A program made the position numbers and the translations under genes. The notes under the pieces were generated by a model. That model worked only from the letters and a program-made list of their open reading frames with translations, did no database searches and was not told where the DNA came from. Source: an uncultured Bryobacteraceae bacterium (GTDB taxonomy: Bacteria; Acidobacteriota; Terriglobia; Bryobacterales; Bryobacteraceae). Taken from it: 60,479 nt of DNA. The stretch spans positions 1 through 60,479 of the forward strand of contig CATPCJ010000247.1 of NCBI GenBank assembly GCA_955652915.1, written 5' to 3'. This document shows, in pieces, positions 39,191 to 49,600 of this stretch; position 1 is the stretch's first letter; the number at the start of each line of letters is the position of its first letter.

Positions 39191-40528
39191 TTGTTAATGC
39201 GCTTACTTGGACTATCTCTTGGAACCGTGGCTTTGATTTCCGCAGCCACCGCCCCGCCACCAGTCACCTTTTACAAGGATGTGTTACCGGTCTTACAGAA
39301 AAACTGCCAGACCTGTCACCGTCCGGGCGAAGCCGCCCCTATGTCCTTTTTGAACTACGAAACAGCCCGTCCATGGGCGAAGGGCATCAAGACGGCGGTT
39401 GTCACTAAGAAAATGCCGCCGTGGTACGCCGATCCGCATTACGGCAAGTTCTCCAATGACCGATCCCTCTCACAGGCGGAAATTGACACGCTGGTATCCT
39501 GGGCGGACACCGGGGCACCGGCGGGCAATCCCAAAGACGCTCCCAAGCCGGCCGAATGGTTAGAAGGCTGGCGCATCAGTAAGCCGGACGCGGTTCTCTC
39601 CATGTCGGTGCCATTCAATGTGCCGGCGTCGGGCACAATCGATTATCAGTACATTGTGATCCCGACTGGCTTTACCGAAGACAAGTATGTCCAGCTTGCC
39701 GAGGCTCGGCCGGGCAATCCCGCGTTGGTTCACCACATCATCGCGTTCATCCGCGAGCCGGGCAGCCCCTGGCTAAAGGATGCCAAACCCGGTATACCTG
39801 TGGTTCCGCGCGAGCGGCAGCGTCAGGCCGAAGCGTCCGGCAATCAGAACAAGAACCAGGACGGCGGCGGATTTGGCGGCGACTTCTTAGCCGGTTACGC
39901 TCCTGGCACATTGCCCAACACGCTGAAGCCCGGTCAGGCCAAGCTGGTGAAAGCCGGCTCCGACATCGTGCTGCAGATGCACTACACGGCCAACGGGACT
40001 GCGGGCTCGGATGTTTCGAAGATCGGTGTTGTTTTCGCGACCGTGAAGCCGACCGAACGCATTCTGACCCTGGCCGCCGTAAATGGCAACTTCGCCATTC
40101 CGCCGGGTGATCCGAACTATCGCGTGGATTCGAAGATCACCCTCCAAGACGATGCCACTCTGATCAATCTGTTGCCTCACATGCATTTCCGAGGCAAGGA
40201 TTTCGAATATCGCGTCACGTATCCGAGCGGCGAGAAGGAAACGCTCCTGGCCGTGCCCCACTACGATTTCAATTGGCAGCTTACCTACGATCTGGCGCAG
40301 CCCAAGTTATTGCCCAGGGGAACGGTGATTGAATGTACCGCCCACTTCGATAATTCGGCGAACAACAAATACAATCCCGATCCCACCAAGGAAGTTCACT
40401 TCGGTGAGCAAACCTGGGAGGAGATGATGTTCGGGTTCTTCGATGTGGCGGTTCCCATGAATAAGACGGTAATGGATCTGATGCGGCCGAAGAAGCCTGC
40501 GGCGGCACAAGCTGGTTCGGGGTTCTAA
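39191..40528 (+). CDS. secreted heme-c (CxxCH) domain fused to a PHM/DBH-like type-2 copper monooxygenase fold, paralogue 1
   Basis: Signal peptide and CQTCHRPGEAAPMSF. HH (ALVHHIIAF), H (LQMHY), HxH (LPHMHFRGK) and Met (EEMMFGF) occur in the order of the CuH/CuM ligands. Confidence 0.65.
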   Translation: MLMRLLGLSLGTVALISAATAPPPVTFYKDVLPVLQKNCQTCHRPGEAAPMSFLNYETARPWAKGIKTAVVTKKMPPWYADPHYGKFSNDRSLSQAEIDTLVSWADTGAPAGNPKDAPKPAEWLEGWRISKPDAVLSMSVPFNVPASGTIDYQYIVIPTGFTEDKYVQLAEARPGNPALVHHIIAFIREPGSPWLKDAKPGIPVVPRERQRQAEASGNQNKNQDGGGFGGDFLAGYAPGTLPNTLKPGQAKLVKAGSDIVLQMHYTANGTAGSDVSKIGVVFATVKPTERILTLAAVNGNFAIPPGDPNYRVDSKITLQDDATLINLLPHMHFRGKDFEYRVTYPSGEKETLLAVPHYDFNWQLTYDLAQPKLLPRGTVIECTAHFDNSANNKYNPDPTKEVHFGEQTWEEMMFGFFDVAVPMNKTVMDLMRPKKPAAAQAGSGF

Positions 40529-40531
40529 ATC

Positions 40532-41845
40532 ATGAAGTACACCAAATTCTTAACATTCGGTTTGTTGGCCGCGGCCGCGGCTTGGGCGGCGAACGCGCGG
40601 CAACAAGTTACGTTCCACAAGGACGTCGCTCCCATCCTGCAGAGCCATTGTCAGGAATGCCATCGGCCCGGCGAGATCGCGCCGTTCTCATTGCTTTCCT
40701 ATACGGACGCGCGTCCGTGGGCCAAGGCGATCAAGTCGGACGTCGTCACCAAGAAGATGCCGCCGTGGTTTGCCGATCCGCGGTACGGCCACTTCGCGGA
40801 CGATCGCTCGCTCAGTAAACAGGAAATCGACACGCTGGTGGCGTGGGTAGATGGCGGCGCCAAGGAAGGCGATCTGAAAGATGCGCCCAAGCCCCGCCAG
40901 TACGTGGATGGATGGAACATTCCGAAGCCCGATCTGGTGCTGGACATGAACACCTTCCATATCCCGGCCAAGGGCGATATCCAGTATATGTATGTCGTGC
41001 TTCCAACGAAGTTCACGCAGGATCAATGGATCCAGGCGGCGGAAGCGCGGCCCAGCGATCGCACCGTGGTGCATCACGTGGTGATCTTTGTTCGCGATCC
41101 GGAATCCAAATGGCTTCGTGAAGCCGAGCCAGGTGTTCCCTATGTTCCGCCAGGCCATGGAAAGGATTTCAACAACACCTCCGGCGGCGGAAATGACATC
41201 CTCATGATCTATACGCCAGGCAAGGTGCCGGAAATGTGGCGGCCCGGCCTGGGCAAGATGATCAAGGCCGGTTCGGATCTGGTGCTGCAGATCCACTACA
41301 CGGCGAGCGGCAAGGAAACCGACGACCATACGAAAGTCGGACTTGTTTTCGCCAAGGAAAAGCCGACCGAGCGCGCGCTCACGATCGGTGGAAACAATCT
41401 CAGCTTTAAGATTCCGCCGGGCGATCCGAACTATCGCGTGGACGCCAAGAACGTGTTCCCGAACGGCGTGACGATTCTGAACTTCTTCCCGCATATGCAC
41501 GTGCGCGGGAAGGCGTTCGAATATCGCGCGGTTTATCCGGACGGAAAGAGCGAGGTTCTGCTGCGAGTGCCGAAGTACGACTTCTTCTGGCAACTCGATT
41601 ACACGCTAACCCAGCCATTGATTCTTCCTCCTGGATCGCGCATCGAAGTCACGGGGTGGTTTGACAACTCACCCAACAATCCGGCCAATCCCGATCCGAC
41701 GGCTACAGTTCGTTTCGGCGAACAGAGCTGGGAAGAGATGATGATCGGGTTCTATGATGTGGTGATGCCGGCGGACATGAGCATGAAAGAGTTCTTCACT
41801 CCGAAGAAGCCGGTCACCGCGCCAACCACGACCAGCGGCCAGTAG
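40532..41845 (+). CDS. secreted heme-c / PHM-like copper monooxygenase-like protein, paralogue 2
   Basis: Collinear with 39191..40528: CQECHRPGEIAPFSL, VVHHVVIF, LQIHY, FPHMHVRGK, EEMMIGF. Starts 3 nt after paralogue 1. Confidence 0.65.
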   Translation: MKYTKFLTFGLLAAAAAWAANARQQVTFHKDVAPILQSHCQECHRPGEIAPFSLLSYTDARPWAKAIKSDVVTKKMPPWFADPRYGHFADDRSLSKQEIDTLVAWVDGGAKEGDLKDAPKPRQYVDGWNIPKPDLVLDMNTFHIPAKGDIQYMYVVLPTKFTQDQWIQAAEARPSDRTVVHHVVIFVRDPESKWLREAEPGVPYVPPGHGKDFNNTSGGGNDILMIYTPGKVPEMWRPGLGKMIKAGSDLVLQIHYTASGKETDDHTKVGLVFAKEKPTERALTIGGNNLSFKIPPGDPNYRVDAKNVFPNGVTILNFFPHMHVRGKAFEYRAVYPDGKSEVLLRVPKYDFFWQLDYTLTQPLILPPGSRIEVTGWFDNSPNNPANPDPTATVRFGEQSWEEMMIGFYDVVMPADMSMKEFFTPKKPVTAPTTTSGQ

Positions 41846-41871
41846 GACAAGCCTCCGGCCGGTCAGCTCCA

Positions 41872-42537
41872 ATGAAGTTTGGGTTATTCCTATTTATCGT
41901 GGGCGTCGGCATTTCGCTGAGCGCCCACGATGTTTTTTCAACCAAGATTACCTGGTCGCGCGAGATCTCGCGCATAATCGACAAGCGCTGCGCATCCTGC
42001 CACCGCGAGGGCGGCTCATCCTTCGCCCTGACCACCTTCGAACAGGCTCGCCCTTGGGCTAAGGCAATCAAGGAAGAGGTGCTGGAACGCCGCATGCCCC
42101 CGTTTGGAGCGATCAAAGGCTTCGGGGACCTGGCCGACGACGAGGCCCTGACCCAGGAAGAGATTCATCTGATCGCGGATTGGGTGGAAGGCGGATCGCC
42201 GGAAGGCGATCCAGCATTGTTAGACAAAAATCCAGAATATGGTCCGCACTCGAAACGTAATCCGAAAACGGGAGCCGAAGTAGTGGTCCACGGCACTCTC
42301 ACGCTGAAGCATCCCCTGACCATCGCCGCTCTCCGTCCGAAGAATCTGAAACAAGGCAGTTCCGTAAAGGTCGTCGCCGATAGCCCGGCAAGCGCCATTG
42401 AGCCACTCCTTTGGGTCTATAACTATAGGCCCGAATTCGACCGCACTTACTACTTGCGAACGCCGCTCACACTGCCCGCCGGCGCCAGGATCGAGACGTT
42501 CCCGCCTGATTCGGACATTGCACTTTTCAGCAAATAG
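41872..42537 (+). CDS. secreted heme-c domain protein (short paralogue without the PHM-like ligand set)
   Basis: CASCHREGGSSFALTTFEQARPWAKAIKEEVLERRMPP is homologous to the N-domains of the two upstream genes. The ~110-aa C-terminal part is unrelated. Confidence 0.6.
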   Translation: MKFGLFLFIVGVGISLSAHDVFSTKITWSREISRIIDKRCASCHREGGSSFALTTFEQARPWAKAIKEEVLERRMPPFGAIKGFGDLADDEALTQEEIHLIADWVEGGSPEGDPALLDKNPEYGPHSKRNPKTGAEVVVHGTLTLKHPLTIAALRPKNLKQGSSVKVVADSPASAIEPLLWVYNYRPEFDRTYYLRTPLTLPAGARIETFPPDSDIALFSK

Positions 42538-44211: not shown

Positions 44212-45156
44212 ATGGAACTATCAGACACGTGTACCATCTATGACTGGAATGGATCGCCGGAATTTCTGTTGTTTCGCACTCTTCCGGGGAGCAGGGTATT
44301 GACCGCAAGCATCGCTCAGCCCTGGCGTGACGTGGCACTCCAGATGAACCCGCAGTGCAAATTCTTCTTCTTTCACCTGAACGCGACGCTCACCTCCGGA
44401 TTCGTGGAAGGACGGGATGAGCTGACCGGCGAGCTGTCGCACCGCGGAATCCGCTGTTTCAACGCCGCCGCCACCAGCGTCTCCAAGCGGCTTCTACACG
44501 CAACTTGTCTGCGTTTGGGCCTGCCGGCTTCGCTTACCTCGCAGGAAGGCGACCCGGACGAGTTGGTCATTGTAAAAACGAACATGAACGCCGGCGGCGA
44601 GATCGAGTACCGGATGTTAGCGAAAGAGCGTGCCGCGTTGGGCATTGAAGAGCCCAGCCAAACACTGATGAGCCTTCGCGAAACGTTGCTGGCGCGTCGC
44701 GTCAGCGTCCAGAACATGTATCCCGTCCTGCCGCGCAAATCCGTTCCGGTGGAATGGTGGAACGATTCACAACTGGTGGTGGAGCGGTTCATCGAGAATC
44801 GCGAGCAACGCTTCTGCCGCATTCACTTCTTTCTGGATCAGATCAGCGTCGCGAACGCAATCTGCCGGACCACAGTCAAGAAGTTGCCCTATTGCGACGC
44901 CTGCACTCACTACCATTTCCACGGGAACTCTCCGGTCTCGGGCAGCATGCCTGAAGACCTCCCGGCTGGGCTCGTGCCGGCGGCGCGCGCGGTGTGGGAA
45001 GCGATGCAGTTGGAGTTCGGCGCGGTGGACGCCGTCTTCGATGACGATTCGCGATTCTTTTTTGTAGATATGAATCACACGCCATACGGTGGCAAATCGG
45101 AAGCGCACCCGGTATATTCCCACCTGCGGCATGCGCTTGTCGGCGCCGCGAACTGA
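44212..45156 (+). CDS. ATP-grasp-like protein (RimK-like fold); 5' end uncertain or possibly frameshifted
   Basis: ELVIVKTNMNAGGE and FGAVDAVFDDDSRFFFVDMNHTPYG resemble ATP-grasp motifs. A strong RBS plus ATG sits 129 nt upstream in the same frame but is separated by two stops. Confidence 0.45.
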   Translation: MELSDTCTIYDWNGSPEFLLFRTLPGSRVLTASIAQPWRDVALQMNPQCKFFFFHLNATLTSGFVEGRDELTGELSHRGIRCFNAAATSVSKRLLHATCLRLGLPASLTSQEGDPDELVIVKTNMNAGGEIEYRMLAKERAALGIEEPSQTLMSLRETLLARRVSVQNMYPVLPRKSVPVEWWNDSQLVVERFIENREQRFCRIHFFLDQISVANAICRTTVKKLPYCDACTHYHFHGNSPVSGSMPEDLPAGLVPAARAVWEAMQLEFGAVDAVFDDDSRFFFVDMNHTPYGGKSEAHPVYSHLRHALVGAAN

Positions 45157-45226: not shown

Positions 45227-46129
45227 CTATTTGAGTTCAGATACGGGGACCGTGAACGACGCCGTGTTTACGACGCCTTTGCGCTGGAACTGGACCCAGA
45301 TCTTGTAGGTACGCGCTCGCGGGAAGATGATGTTGAACTGCATCCGCGGCCCGCCATCGGCTATGAAGGGATGATCGTGGATCAGATCGATCAGGTCGTC
45401 GCTAGCCACCAGCATGTGTCCCCAAGCGCTCAGATATTGCTCGATGCCATCCGCCGGCTTGATGCGGAAGAAGAGCAGGGTTTTCGTGCCGGCGATCGGC
45501 TCCGGCGGATCCATCGCCAGTTCCACATCCATGTTCTCACAATGGCTGACGCCGAGCGCGGGCTTTAGATGCGGTTCAGCGACGCTGAGATCGCTACCTG
45601 CGGCGCCCGGTACGATTACCGTACGCGCGATCAATTGCGGGGTTCCGCCGGCGGGATAAAAGTCAGCGCCTACGCGATACATTCCCGGCTTGGGAAAAAC
45701 GGCGTCGAATACGAATGTGCCATCCGCTTGTGGTACGGGGTGATCGTGCAGGAAATACCCAAGGTCCTGGCTGACCACAAACATGTGGAAGAACTTATCG
45801 TGAACGATCTCGAAATGATCGACGGTTTTCCCGGTCTTGGGATCCCGCACGCGGAAGGTGAGTTGAACTTTGCCGCCGGCCTGGAACCTGCGGGGCGAAA
45901 TGGTGAGGTCCACGGGAAACTCGCTATCGCCGGGAACACCCAGCACCAGTTTCATGTGGCAGCGCGGGCAGTATCCCGGCTTGTCGGCGCGCACATCCTT
46001 GTCCATCGGACATACGTAATCGAGCGGGCCTTGCGCGAGCGGCGCAACGGCTTGCTTGTCGTCTGGAGCCGTCGTTTGCGCCACGGCGCACAGGCTCATG
46101 GAAAGCAGGAGCGACAGGAAGATCCGCAC
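45227..46129 (-). CDS. secreted heavy-metal-binding-domain protein
   Basis: Signal peptide. YVCPMDKDVRADKPGYCPRCHMKLV (HMBD/YHS-like CPM...CPxC motif) followed by two beta-sandwich repeats. Confidence 0.6.
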   Translation of the reverse strand: MRIFLSLLLSMSLCAVAQTTAPDDKQAVAPLAQGPLDYVCPMDKDVRADKPGYCPRCHMKLVLGVPGDSEFPVDLTISPRRFQAGGKVQLTFRVRDPKTGKTVDHFEIVHDKFFHMFVVSQDLGYFLHDHPVPQADGTFVFDAVFPKPGMYRVGADFYPAGGTPQLIARTVIVPGAAGSDLSVAEPHLKPALGVSHCENMDVELAMDPPEPIAGTKTLLFFRIKPADGIEQYLSAWGHMLVASDDLIDLIHDHPFIADGGPRMQFNIIFPRARTYKIWVQFQRKGVVNTASFTVPVSELK

Positions 46130-46178: not shown

Positions 46179-47240
46179 ATGCAACGATTTTCCATCGCTG
46201 TCATTCCGGGCGACGGCGTCGGCCAGGAAGTGGTTCCGGCGGCGCTCCGCGTTTTGGAAGCCATCGGCCCGCGCTACGATGCAAGCTTCGATCTAAAAGC
46301 GTTCGATTGGGGCGCCGATTACTACTTCCACCATGGCCGCATGATGCCGGCCGATGCGCTGGAGCAGTTGCGTCCCATGGATGCGATTCTGCTCGGCGCC
46401 GTCGGCGATCCGCAGATACCGGACCACATCACGCTGAATGGATTGCTGCTGCCTATTCGCCGCGCCTTCGATCAATTCGCCAATGTTCGTCCCGCGATCC
46501 TGTACGACGGCGTCCCTTCGCCGCTGGCGCGGCCGGGCGCGATCGACATGGTGGTGGTGCGCGAAAATACCGAGGGCGAATATGCGCAGGTCGGCGGGTT
46601 CGTCTATCATCATCAACCGGAGGAAGTGGCCATTCAGACCGCCGTTTTCACGCGGCGCGGTATCGATCGCGTGGTACGGTTCGCTTTTGAGCTGGCGCGC
46701 AAGCGCAATAAGCAACGGCGCGTCACTTCCATCACCAAGTCCAATGCGCAGGGCTTCGGCATGGTGTTGTGGGACCGGGCGTTTCAAGCCGTCGCCTCGG
46801 AATATCCGGATATTGAAACCGAATCGCTGCTGGTGGACGCCGCCGCGATGAACTTTATCAGGCGTCCGGAAAGTTTTGACGTGGTGGTCGCTTCGAATCT
46901 GTTCGGGGATATCCTGAGCGACGTTTCGGCGATTCTGACCGGCAGCATCGGTCTGGCCCCCAGCGCGAATCTCGATCCTACGCGGCGCTTTCCTTCCATG
47001 TTCGAGCCCGTGCATGGATCGGCTCCCGGTATCGCCGGCAGGGGCATCGTGAATCCACTGGCGTCCATCTTGTCGGCGGGGATGATGCTCGAGCATCTGG
47101 GACTGGAGGAGGCCGGACGATCCGTGGAGCGGGCCGTGGCGGGTGTGTTGGCAGAGGGGAAATTCAAGACGCCGGATCTGGGCGGGACAAGTCACACGAA
47201 CGAGGTCACGAGCGCCGTGATCGACCGCATCGCCGGGTAA
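46179..47240 (+). CDS. tartrate / D-malate dehydrogenase (isocitrate-isopropylmalate dehydrogenase family)
   Basis: IAVIPGDGVGQEV..., VVRENTEGEY, NLFGDILSD and FEPVHGSAPGIAG blocks, collinear with E. coli DmlA as recalled. Confidence 0.8.
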   Translation: MQRFSIAVIPGDGVGQEVVPAALRVLEAIGPRYDASFDLKAFDWGADYYFHHGRMMPADALEQLRPMDAILLGAVGDPQIPDHITLNGLLLPIRRAFDQFANVRPAILYDGVPSPLARPGAIDMVVVRENTEGEYAQVGGFVYHHQPEEVAIQTAVFTRRGIDRVVRFAFELARKRNKQRRVTSITKSNAQGFGMVLWDRAFQAVASEYPDIETESLLVDAAAMNFIRRPESFDVVVASNLFGDILSDVSAILTGSIGLAPSANLDPTRRFPSMFEPVHGSAPGIAGRGIVNPLASILSAGMMLEHLGLEEAGRSVERAVAGVLAEGKFKTPDLGGTSHTNEVTSAVIDRIAG

Positions 47241-47714
47241 AAACCGCTCCCTTGGCGAGGGGCGCGAGCTTGTCGGCGGACAAGACCGGTCGGAGAGGAA
47301 GCCTCTGGCCGACGCATCATGCCCCGATCTTCGTGGACGAGAATTCGGGCTTGCACCATCACGAATAGGTGGTCCGCGCCTGATTCAGTTTTCAGTGAGG
47401 GTTCAATTCTAAGAGGCACCGCGGGCTCTTGCAGACTCGGTAAGAAAGATTGCCCGCGCATCGACCCTGCACCTGCCTCGCGAGCAATAACGGAGCGGAC
47501 CATCCTCATCCGTTGAACTTTTCTCCACGCCGGTGCGTAGAAAAGTTTGTGATCCCGCCGTCACGATGTTCGGAGAACCAGGGTAATCCGCTGAAATCGG
47601 ACACTTGCGCGGCGGAGGATCGGTGGCCCGACCCTCGGATGTACTTCATTTACCGTGAATTCGGCCATGCACTTGCATCTGGCCTGAACGATTCCACTAA
47701 CGACTGGAGGACAC

Positions 47715-48476
47715 ATGGAACCCGTTATCGATCTGAACTGCTCACTTCCGAGTGAAGGTACTTTTCTCACACCCTTTGCCCTGATCTGGCAAGACATCCT
47801 GGCGCAGGCTATGACCGGCGAACTCGTCGCGGCGTTGAACTACACCGCCTTATCGACGATATGTGACGATCCCGCGGAAGCAGCCGACGCGTTGGAGCAT
47901 GCGGCGGGTGAACAGGGGCATGCTGCCGCGTTCGCCGCCGAGGGCCGCAAGATTGGAGTGGACGTGCCCAATAACGTCAACGCAAAGCATTGGAAGCGGC
48001 TCCGCGAGGCCTTCATGCGCCGCATCGCGGAGCGCGACTTCATTGGCTGCCTGATCGTCCAGGAGATCATGCTTGAATCCTTCGCCGTCGCAAGCTATGC
48101 ACGCGCCGGGAAGGTGGCGCCGGGGAGCATGGGTAGGACGTTTGCCTCCATCGCGGCGGAGGAAGAAGAGCACATTGAACACGCGATGGCGATACTCAGA
48201 ACCGAGCGAGCCTTGGATGCGCAGCGCTTCGACGACAAGGTGCACGGGCTGCACCTTGAGGTGATGACCACGCTGGCGGAGATGCTTGCGAGGGAATGCA
48301 CGCATGGGCACTGCGAAGTGTGCCACGACAGTTGCGTGAAGCCATCCCTGTCCGAAGTGAGCTTGACCGCGGCCGAGCTGCGCGGAGCGTCGTTGCGGCA
48401 GTACCTCAAGACGCTGGACATGCTGGGACTGCCCGGGGAGGTAACACTTGCATGGGTGAGTCAGTTGCCGGTGTAG
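47715..48476 (+). CDS. ferritin-like diiron protein homologous to aldehyde-deformylating oxygenase (ADO), with Cys/His-rich C-terminal extension
   Basis: GGAGG RBS. Ligand pattern E(GELVAAL) ... ExxH(GEQGH) ... E(IMLESFAVASY) ... ExxH(EEEEH). IVQEIMLESFAVASY resembles ADO LIQSLIIECFAIAAY. Confidence 0.65.
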   Translation: MEPVIDLNCSLPSEGTFLTPFALIWQDILAQAMTGELVAALNYTALSTICDDPAEAADALEHAAGEQGHAAAFAAEGRKIGVDVPNNVNAKHWKRLREAFMRRIAERDFIGCLIVQEIMLESFAVASYARAGKVAPGSMGRTFASIAAEEEEHIEHAMAILRTERALDAQRFDDKVHGLHLEVMTTLAEMLARECTHGHCEVCHDSCVKPSLSEVSLTAAELRGASLRQYLKTLDMLGLPGEVTLAWVSQLPV

Positions 48477-49600
48477 CCGCCAATGTAGCCCAGCAAGCGC
48501 CGGCGATCGACGTCGATTTCGCTTTGATCGGGCATCAGGAATGTTGGAGAGCGGCCGCGGACGTGCTCGCAGTCCTGCGCGGACCTGAACATCCGCCTCT
48601 GCCGGATGACGAGATCAGGGACATCTTTCCATGGATTCCGCCCAGAGCGATCTGTCACGTCGAAGCCGGATCGATCGCCGGCGGGAAGGCGCGCGGTGTC
48701 TACATCGATTCCTTCATTCCTCCGGACCGCCTGGATGCCAACTACATGCGCGACAACCTCGCCCGCGTTCGAGGGGCGGCGGCCTACGCGATCAAGGCAG
48801 GAGCGAAGATCGTCAGTCTCGGCGGATTCAGTTCCATTTTGATCGAGGGCAATTTGGATCAGCTTCCAGAAAGACACGGTACGGTCTTCACCACCGGCAA
48901 TACGTTGACAGTTGGTTTCATCGTTCAGGGCATCAAGAAGATGTGCGCGCTGGAGGGTCGAAACCTCCGAAGATCCACGCTGCTCATCGTGGGAGCGACA
49001 GGAGATGTGGGGTCCGGCTGTGCCCGTTGTTTGGCGCCTGTCGTGAAGCGGGTGCTGCTCAATGCACGCAACATGGAGCGGCTGCGAACGCTCGCCGCGG
49101 AGTTGGAGGCCGATGGAGTTCAGGTAGAGATCGCGACCGGGCTCCAGCAATTCTCCGCGGAGGCCGACGTCGCGATCTGCGCGGCGAGTTTGGCATCCCC
49201 TTCGCTTCTATTGGGCCGGATCGCGCCCGGCGCGATCGTTTGCGATGCGGGTTACCCGAAGAACTTGTCCCCAAGCGGGCAGATGGCCGGCGCCAAAATC
49301 TTCTTCGGAGGTCTGGGACAGATCACTGGCGGATTGAGATTCAAGCCGGATTTTCAGGGCATTCTGAATCGGCATCCATTCCCCGATGTAGTTCACGGAT
49401 GCCTGCTCGAAGGCATGGCTCTGGCTCTGGAGCGCCGGTTCGAGCCTTTCTCCCAAGGAAGGGGGTTCATCACTCCGGAGCGGGTTGAGGAGATCGAGAC
49501 AATTGCCGCGCGGCATGGAATCTTTCTCGCACCGCTCTACAACGCCGATGGACCAGTAGAGGACGGCGTTGAGTGTCTTGCCGGATGGTCGGCAGGATGA
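48452..49600 (+). CDS. acyl-ACP reductase (AAR)-like NAD(P)-dependent reductase
   Basis: GGGGAGG RBS. FALIGHQ..., SLGGFSSI, FTTGNTLT, IVGATGDVGS, CDAGYPKNL and HGCLLEGMALALE are collinear with cyanobacterial AAR (FGLIGHL, ALGGFTSI, FTTGNTHT, VVGATGDIGS, IDGGYPKNL, FACFAEAMLLEFE). Confidence 0.75.
   Translation: MGESVAGVAANVAQQAPAIDVDFALIGHQECWRAAADVLAVLRGPEHPPLPDDEIRDIFPWIPPRAICHVEAGSIAGGKARGVYIDSFIPPDRLDANYMRDNLARVRGAAAYAIKAGAKIVSLGGFSSILIEGNLDQLPERHGTVFTTGNTLTVGFIVQGIKKMCALEGRNLRRSTLLIVGATGDVGSGCARCLAPVVKRVLLNARNMERLRTLAAELEADGVQVEIATGLQQFSAEADVAICAASLASPSLLLGRIAPGAIVCDAGYPKNLSPSGQMAGAKIFFGGLGQITGGLRFKPDFQGILNRHPFPDVVHGCLLEGMALALERRFEPFSQGRGFITPERVEEIETIAARHGIFLAPLYNADGPVEDGVECLAGWSAG

Follow-up and report, generated by a model that had tools for sequence, protein, structure and literature searches.

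An ADO-like diiron protein and an AAR-like reductase encoded as a conserved gene pair, with a possible role in exported lipids, in uncultured Acidobacteriota

Within a contig of 60,479 nucleotides (nt) from an uncultured Bryobacteraceae bacterium of the phylum Acidobacteriota (assembly GCA_955652915.1, contig CATPCJ010000247.1; the whole stretch is referred to here as the window) two adjacent genes, A and B, encode proteins related to cyanobacterial aldehyde-deformylating oxygenase (ADO) and to the reductase of fatty acyl thioesters of acyl carrier protein (acyl-ACP reductase, AAR). The two-enzyme logic is already known and the pair is already annotated in databases under ADO/AAR-type names; what is new is the family, a Cys-rich loop in A, the phyla concerned and an ancestry in a lipid gene cluster. 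Using sequence, structure prediction and synteny, from which the whole functional reading is drawn, we lean somewhat towards viewing the locus as two translationally coupled enzymes from an uncharacterised family, sister to cyanobacterial AAR/ADO, that together form a module of an exported-lipid pathway. An earlier note on this DNA had described two co-directional genes with an overlap of 25 nt, and this layout was confirmed.

47715..48476, + strand: gene A, ADO-like ferritin-fold diiron protein of 253 amino acids (aa), with GGAGGA 6 nt before the ATG
48452..49600, + strand: gene B, AAR-like NAD(P)H-dependent thioester reductase of 382 aa, start ATG at 48452
48452..48476, + strand: A/B overlap of 25 nt, with GGGGAGG, resembling a ribosome-binding site, upstream of B at 48437-48443

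The length of 382 aa is the same as that of the window's own protein in the protein collection (P0121). An identical 25 nt overlap occurs in the gene calls of related contigs and we read it as translational coupling of A and B.

Protein A matches Pfam PF11266 at 45.7 bits (gathering score 28) over profile positions 14-145 of 218, and in a sequence search of the PDB its best 20 matches were all cyanobacterial ADO with E values down to 1.4e-8, followed by a Dps-like protein at E = 0.007. Foldseek searches with an AlphaFold2 (AF2) model of A (predicted local distance difference test score, pLDDT, of 85) returned cyanobacterial ADO chains as the top 26 matches with TM scores of 0.84-0.89 and root-mean-square deviations of 2.4-3.1; all non-ADO matches had E values above 1e-3, and the more distant ones included the azoxy synthase VlmB and other diiron oxygenases. 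Alignment to the cyanobacterial SeADO by hhalign had a probability of 98% over 204 columns, at an identity of A to ADO of approximately 19-22%. The diiron motif E/ExxH/E/ExxH with spacings of 30, 55 and 29 and the block IMLESFAVASY, both pointed out in the earlier note, are all present. The ligands E36, E66-x2-H69, E121 and E150-x2-H153 align to SeADO E32/E60/H63/E115/E144/H147 and are invariant in 118/118 family members, these and all further conservation counts being taken over 118 family loci of which 101 are pair-only (the window's clade) and 17 are cluster-type (sister lineages).

47820..48173, + strand: predicted diiron ligand codons, E36 at 47820-22, E66 at 47910-12 and H69 at 47919-21
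continued, + strand: predicted diiron ligand codons, E121 at 48075-77, E150 at 48162-64 and H153 at 48171-73
48297..48341, + strand: Cys-rich loop C195-THGH-C200-EV-C203-HDS-C207-V-K209, an insertion relative to SeADO between ADO helices 6 and 7

With ADO (SeADO 4RC5, PmADO 2OC5) protein A has in common the eight-helix ferritin-like fold with its ligands, the residues C112, Q116 and Y128 (SeADO C106, Q110 and Y122), several aromatic channel residues and a gene position directly upstream of an AAR-type reductase. By alignment the hydrophobic channel residues F73, W93, F123, A124 and Y128 are kept, corresponding to SeADO F67, F87, F117, A118 and Y122. A differs from ADO in having an N-terminal extension and in belonging to a family of Acidobacteriota and Bacteroidota whose neighbouring genes include ones for lipids and exporters.

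The Cys-rich loop is a further difference, being an insertion of 14 residues that hhalign places exactly between helices 6 and 7 and that SeADO lacks. Its length is constant (16 residues in 118/118), C200, C203, C207 and K209 are invariant, and position 195 is Cys in 100/101 pair-only and Asp in 17/17 cluster-type sequences. Such a fixed-length C/D-x4-C-x2-C-x3-C loop with Cys/Asp alternation is probably a metal or Fe-S site. In the metal-free AF2 model the loop has a pLDDT of approximately 55, poor modelling that would be expected in the absence of a metal. It lies at the face (helix 7) that in cyanobacterial ADO binds AAR and admits substrate, and may serve as an electron-relay or interface metal site. 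Rubrerythrin, a diiron four-helix bundle with a Cys4 iron domain in which the Cys-ligated site relays electrons, resembles A in concept only, in that a ferritin-like diiron centre and a Cys-ligated site are combined in a single polypeptide. The match of A to rubrerythrin PF02915 (19.8 bits) is below the Pfam cutoff of 22.8, the Cys residues of A form one short internal loop with no C-terminal rubredoxin domain, and the overall fold is that of ADO.

Protein B had been described in the earlier note as collinear with AAR, and all of the blocks then quoted are present (FALIGH, LGGFSSI, FTTGNT, VGATGDVGS, GYPKNL and HGCLLEGMALALE), with E = 1e-39 against TIGR04058 and E = 5e-30 against SeAAR (6JZQ, residues 2-334). 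The likeness to AAR runs over the full length and includes the catalytic Cys, the GATGD(I/V)G loop for NADPH and the GYPKN and LGGF(S/T)SI blocks. B differs in an insertion in the Fr-I region, which forms the end of the acyl tunnel, and in extensions of about 22 aa at the N-terminus and about 25 aa at the C-terminus. Overall the identity of the pair to ADO and AAR is approximately 19-30%.

48992..49012, + strand: dinucleotide-binding loop G181-A-T-G-D-V-G187 of B, aligning to SeAAR 162-GATGDIG-168
49400..49402, + strand: Cys317 codon of B, the predicted acyl-thioester nucleophile, aligning to SeAAR C294

G181, G184, D185, G187 and S188 of B are invariant, as is C317 (118/118), which sits inside an H-G-C-L-L-E motif. 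Another match of B is to the N-terminal, AAR-like domain of PigE from the 2-methyl-3-n-amyl-pyrrole (MAP) branch of prodigiosin synthesis, both among PDB sequences (4PPM, E = 4e-15) and by profile (NF053554, 85.8 bits against a cutoff of 850, with only profile positions 84-340 of 837 covered), and it is in this domain that the reductase activity of PigE presumably resides. B lacks the fused class-III aminotransferase domain of PigE, resembles AAR more than it does PigE, and has a diiron protein as its partner. PigE has thioester-to-aldehyde reductase activity (PMC8341465) and by analogy may be taken as a precedent for AAR-like domains that act as aldehyde-forming thioester reductases outside alkane synthesis.

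The order of the two genes, ado then aar, is that of cyanobacteria, as the earlier note had remarked, and the unit is conserved outside that phylum. B lies directly downstream of A on the same strand in 82/82 genome and context loci, and in metagenome loci with identities as low as 38% it follows A in nearly all cases where the contig extends far enough, with an inserted gene in two cases. Pairwise identities of A and of B are correlated with r = 0.975 over 6903 pairs, their neighbour-joining trees (distance-based and without support values) are congruent, and the ratio of nonsynonymous to synonymous substitution rates (dN/dS) against eight related loci is 0.09-0.18 for both genes. Taken together, the obligate adjacency, the correlated identities, the congruent trees and the dN/dS values indicate that A and B evolve as one unit under purifying selection.

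A survey of co-occurrence had been proposed in the earlier note, and a scan of GTDB with one genome per species shows that at least 197 species encode a relative. The best 80 of these, for which taxonomy and identity are given (76-85% identity), are all metagenome-assembled genomes (MAGs) of Acidobacteriota with no cultured isolate, labelled Terriglobia, Ca. Acidoferrum/Acidiferrum, Ca. Sulfotelmatobacter, 'Bryobacteraceae' and gp1/gp2, a few being probably mis-binned. MAGs of Bacteroidota make up one branch of the family. At the level of 90% clusters there are 2082 relatives of A and 2829 of B, mostly from soil and peat metagenomes, which the JGI and NCBI pipelines label 'fatty aldehyde decarbonylase' and 'fatty aldehyde-generating acyl-ACP reductase' respectively. 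An exhaustive search of 1.84 billion representative proteins with A as query gave only 169 clusters at 50% identity with E values below 1e-3. A Cys-containing insertion at the same site is seen in most of 24 aligned full-length divergent representatives, and against A the distant family members outscore ADO (P0311 with 81.6 bits versus 38 bits for ADO). From the shared insertion and these scores we place A in a distinct 'Cys-loop ADO-like' family to which cyanobacterial ADO is a sister.

A number of individual relatives stand out. For four loci with A 78-81% identical to that of the window (L030, L038, L041 and L060) the label of the MAG is Methylomirabilota, Ca. Udaeobacter, Binatia or Thermoanaerobaculia, and for protein P0067 it is Eremiobacteraceae; as these sequences are so close to acidobacterial ones, binning contamination looks likelier than cross-phylum occurrence. 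In L002 (8738-9502; identical DNA in L004; contig_23102) the AAR-like gene is called as 254 aa with tblastn covering residues 140-310, probably through a frameshift or long-read assembly error, or as a pseudogene. P0285 (538 aa) has an ADO-like fragment (residues 135-197) and an AAR-like part (389-517) in one called protein, perhaps as an artefact of read-through or a frameshift, perhaps as a true fusion of A and B. Among distant members with 25-30% identity to A, P0311, P0331 and P0339 have an arsenite-methyltransferase-like N-terminus (NF008823, up to 281.7 bits with a cutoff of 263) fused to a C-terminal ADO-like domain, and the stand-alone members P0326, P0340, P0350 and P0365 terminate in ...CC. 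These ArsM-like fusions and ...CC termini suggest that part of the family is engaged in the chemistry of thiols or metalloids.

The genes surrounding the pair in its relatives point towards lipids. All lineages in which A is at most 69% identical to that of the window have extra conserved co-directional genes wherever flanks are available. The recurrent partners are a GNAT protein of about 350-390 aa and a DUF3419/BtaA-like protein (PF11899, 220-250 bits; named S-adenosylmethionine-diacylglycerol 3-amino-3-carboxypropyl transferase by JGI), both of which occur in all 17 cluster-type loci with room, and in some loci these are joined by a PrpD/MmgE-like protein, a membrane protein of the fatty-acid-desaturase family and an MMPL transporter. 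The contigs with DUF3419 matches that were looked up are cluster-type loci with their own copies of A and B. The arrangements seen are as follows.

GNAT-A-B-DUF3419
A-B-GNAT-DUF3419-PrpD
FA_desaturase-GNAT-A-B-DUF3419
A-B-DUF3419-unknown 264-aa protein-FA_desaturase-MMPL-GNAT, on Ca. Acidiferrum contigs of 1.3-8.4 Mb
6156-14504 of L163 (Ca. Acidiferrum MAG contig, 2.2 Mb): seven-gene co-directional cluster, also in L164-L166

A cytochrome P450 gene converges on the end of the L163 seven-gene cluster. The 264-aa protein had no Pfam or PDB match, and searches of PDB and NCBIfam gave no informative match for the cluster GNAT, DUF3419, 264-aa or desaturase-like protein.

The match of the sister-lineage DUF3419 proteins to the BtaA family suggests that this partner transfers a 3-amino-3-carboxypropyl head group to a lipid alcohol. 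There are differences from the BtaA/BtaB betaine-lipid pathway in that the sister-lineage clusters contain a GNAT with no BtaB-type N-methyltransferase seen, that association with a reductase and a diiron oxygenase is foreign to the known pathway to diacylglyceryl-trimethylhomoserine (DGTS), and that the window itself has no DUF3419 gene. In both trees the pair-only clade is monophyletic and nested inside the lineages that carry the cluster, those of Ca. Acidiferrum being its sisters, and on this basis the two-gene operon is a derived, reduced form. Within the pair-only clade a same-strand set of GntR (PF00392), ABC ATPase (PF00005) and ABC-2-like permease genes lies upstream in 55/70 species with enough upstream sequence, the permease coming directly before A in 34 of those 55; the window and 15 species are without this set. 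Where present (among L003-L082; e.g. L005 372-2584) it is often preceded by a gene for a secreted protein (about 190 aa, unmatched in Pfam) and sometimes followed by one for a DUF4386 membrane protein.

With a view to accounting for these features together we propose the following scheme. Cys317 of B would accept a fatty acyl thioester, either acyl-ACP or acyl-CoA, which B would reduce with NAD(P)H at the GATGDVG loop to a free fatty aldehyde, a step for which the conserved catalytic residues argue. A would then take the aldehyde at its diiron centre and convert it with O2, as the fold, the ligands and the obligate pairing suggest, the reaction being most likely a C1-C2 cleavage (deformylation) to a Cn-1 hydrocarbon or Cn-1 alcohol; the alcohol is considered on account of the more polar, His-rich active site. 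More speculatively, the Cys3(+Cys/Asp, His) loop adjoining helix 7 would bind a metal or Fe-S centre and relay electrons in place of the ferredoxin from which cyanobacterial ADO receives them. Finally the product of A and B would be an exported envelope lipid or its building block, a role to which the gene context in relatives points through the BtaA-like, GNAT, desaturase/hydroxylase-like and MMPL genes in sister lineages and the GntR and ABC-2 exporter genes upstream in most genomes of the window's own clade.

The best supported part of the scheme is that a Cys-dependent NAD(P)H thioester reductase (B) hands an aldehyde to an O2-activating diiron enzyme (A). ADO-like deformylation is the default for A, although a Cn-1 alcohol or another functionalised lipid is at least as plausible as a plain alkane. 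The polar, His-rich site raises doubt about the alkane, as do the ancestral head-group transferase (which needs a nucleophile, e.g. an alcohol), the N-acyltransferase and the recurrent exporters. Cyanobacterial ADO can itself reportedly also give n-1 alcohols and aldehydes, in work attributed to Aukema et al. (2013, ACS Catal). The window would on this scheme carry a reduced stand-alone module that is an old, vertically inherited acidobacterial trait.

Several observations weigh against this reading. The label 'cyanobacterial-type' in the earlier note is not supported by comparison with the equivalog models, as A reaches 48.6 bits (E = 1e-12) against NCBIfam TIGR04059 with a cutoff of 222.65, and B, over profile positions 2-334 of 339, reaches 136.7 bits against TIGR04058 with a cutoff of 449.7; nor are the docking residues kept, and A falls in its separate Cys-loop family. 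Residues R73, R79 and K80 of SeAAR have been shown experimentally to contact E196, E200 and D201 in helix 7 of SeADO (PMC7089970). They align to Y98, A104 and R105 of B, where only the K80 position is basic across the family, and the acidic SeADO residues align to A220, G224 and A225 in a helix 7 of A that is neutral or basic, with R223 and G224 invariant. The cyanobacterial docking charges thus appear, by alignment, to be absent from A and B, which leaves co-evolution as the ground on which a physical A-B complex may be supposed.

The surroundings of the irons differ as well. H62, H156, H180 and Q31 of A are family-invariant and are hydrophobic or absent in ADO, and H62 and H156 are one helical turn away from the iron ligands. 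As aligned, the near-iron channel changes from SeADO to A are predicted to be I27 to Q31, A121 to S127, F150 to H156 and L56 to H62; position 127 is less constant than the other three, being Ser in 99/101 pair-only and Met in 12/17 cluster-type sequences. In addition SeADO Y125 is replaced by A or V in the family (sequence alignment only). The H-x3-E-x2-H arrangement resembles what we take to be that of diiron N-oxygenases such as AurF. With such polar residues near the irons, the substrate head group or the chemistry of A may differ from that of ADO. The AF2 model of B was poor (pLDDT 51, from 30 close homologues), the metal content of the Cys loop is something we purely infer, the family clade appears to be uncultured, and on a plain alkane the BtaA-like and GNAT enzymes of the ancestral cluster would have nothing to act on.

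The strongest competitor, which we regard as possible but doubtful, is a genuine cyanobacterial-type alkane pathway in which B would produce a C16-C18 aldehyde from acyl-ACP and A would convert it to a C15-C17 alka(e)ne and formate as the end product. In its favour, no characterised proteins come nearly as close to A and B as ADO and AAR do, the pair retains every diiron ligand, the catalytic Cys, the order ado then aar and several of the hydrophobic channel residues, and in the window's clade the BtaA-like and GNAT genes have gone from the neighbourhood. Set against these are scores of only 22-30% of the equivalog cutoffs, the Cys-loop insertion, the extra invariant His and Gln near the irons and the loss of the docking residues. 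The clade is moreover nested in lineages whose pair feeds a head-group-adding cluster, a role impossible for an alkane, and an exporter is a frequent neighbour. To our knowledge cyanobacterial alkane synthesis needs no exporter. The interpretation in the earlier note is upheld as regards homology to ADO and AAR and is doubtful as regards an alkane product, given a clade nested among lineages embedded with BtaA-like, GNAT and exporter genes.

Less probable still is that A does not cleave aldehydes at all and is instead a hydroxylase, desaturase or N-oxygenase acting on another amino-lipid or lipo-amino-acid intermediate, for example an aminocarboxypropyl amine later acylated by the GNAT, with unlinked BtaA-like and GNAT partners in the window's genome. 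This would suit the presence of both partners in all 17 cluster-type loci with room, the His-rich active site, VlmB and other diiron oxygenases among the distant Foldseek matches, and distant members that are fused to ArsM-like methyltransferases and not paired with a reductase. However, the adjacency and order of A and B are far better conserved than the position of the GNAT or DUF3419 gene, A and B co-evolve tightly, more than 100 loci have the pair with neither a GNAT nor a DUF3419 gene inside 4 kb (nor was either found in the 60-kb window), and no other structure matches A nearly as well as ADO. A recent horizontal acquisition from cyanobacteria, which the earlier note had raised and which has in its favour only the general belief that the AAR-ADO pathway is specific to cyanobacteria (e.g. 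PMC6361979), is refuted by the identity levels (approximately 19-22% to ADO for A and at most about 30% for the pair) and the trees, hundreds of acidobacterial species sharing the pair in a deep Acidobacteriota/Bacteroidota phylogeny of its own that is consistent between A and B, with closer relatives than ADO in non-cyanobacterial lineages and a G+C of 0.60 equal to the rest of the contig with no compositional anomaly. The other suggestion made there, of an ancient relative possibly acting on another acyl substrate, fits the data, as does the possibility of a different product.

In the window itself the immediate and wider flanks of the pair show no link to lipids. The gene before the upstream gap belongs to the isocitrate/isopropylmalate-dehydrogenase family (Iso_dh), the gene downstream of B encodes a GGDEF-EAL protein and is convergent, and further out lie genes for a protein with a heavy-metal-binding domain, a prepilin peptidase, a methylmalonyl-CoA mutase and a GT4 glycosyltransferase. 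Throughout the 60-kb window no homologue of the cluster genes DUF3419, GNAT-type, MMPL, PrpD, GntR-ABC, fam4 or DUF4386 was found.

47241..47714, + strand: upstream intergenic region of 474 nt, with the presumed promoter and any regulator site of the two-gene operon

Around the operon no sigma-70-like promoter site was found, an Rfam scan gave no match at threshold, and three terminator-like sites compare with a mean of 2.2 in shuffled sequence and so are not enriched. A sub-threshold Rfam match to DUF3800-XI RNA (47041-47090, + strand, E = 0.67, 18.1 bits where the gathering score is 37.8) falls within the 3' end of Iso_dh and is most likely due to chance. For four open reading frames upstream of the pair (445, 437, 221 and 314 aa; 39191-42537 and 44212-45156, all on the + strand) Pfam gave nothing at E <= 1e-5. 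The protein of 300 aa whose start resembles a signal peptide, and which has a heavy-metal-binding domain (PF19335) at its N-terminus, is encoded two genes upstream of the pair, at 45227-46129 on the - strand.

AAR and ADO are treated as a cyanobacterial speciality and are the workhorse of bio-alkane engineering. A full-text literature search, which did not cover Mak et al. 2020 (Biochemistry 59:3834), brought up no paper describing an ADO/AAR pair from Acidobacteriota or a DUF3419-AAR cluster. A deeply diverged second lineage with this two-enzyme logic, common among uncultured Acidobacteriota of soil and peat, would be new. The family offers possible new enzymes and, as ADO is notoriously dependent on external reductants, a built-in electron relay, if present, would address that dependence. 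There is also a caution for metagenomic surveys of 'hydrocarbon production' that count K14331/PF11266 matches as alkane synthesis (PMC10176705, PMC13170169), as the Cys-loop ADO-like family passes the Pfam threshold yet is not an equivalog. The pair would also open the way to a lipid cluster (BtaA-like, GNAT, desaturase-like, MMPL) that two phyla share and that is so far uncharacterised.

A more specific version of the exported-lipid reading, which we consider unlikely though worth stating, is that A and B form the tail-forming core of an unrecognised class of exported amino-lipids in Acidobacteriota and Bacteroidota. The product would be an O-alkyl or hydroxy-alkyl homoserine-type lipid in which the alcohol arises by oxidative deformylation of the fatty aldehyde, the BtaA-like transferase adds an aminocarboxypropyl group and the GNAT then N-acylates it, with A as a 'self-sufficient' relative of ADO that would have an electron relay (Fe-S or metal) built into the Cys loop. 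If this were true, the window's clade, which is abundant in soil, would make a free Cn-1 alcohol or hydrocarbon and export it through the ABC-2 pump. C15-C17 hydrocarbons and alcohols serve as soil biomarkers, for which the pair may represent a bacterial source in soils, and on the amino-lipid version mid-chain hydrocarbons or alcohols would have a non-photosynthetic source in a phylum that is dominant in soil.

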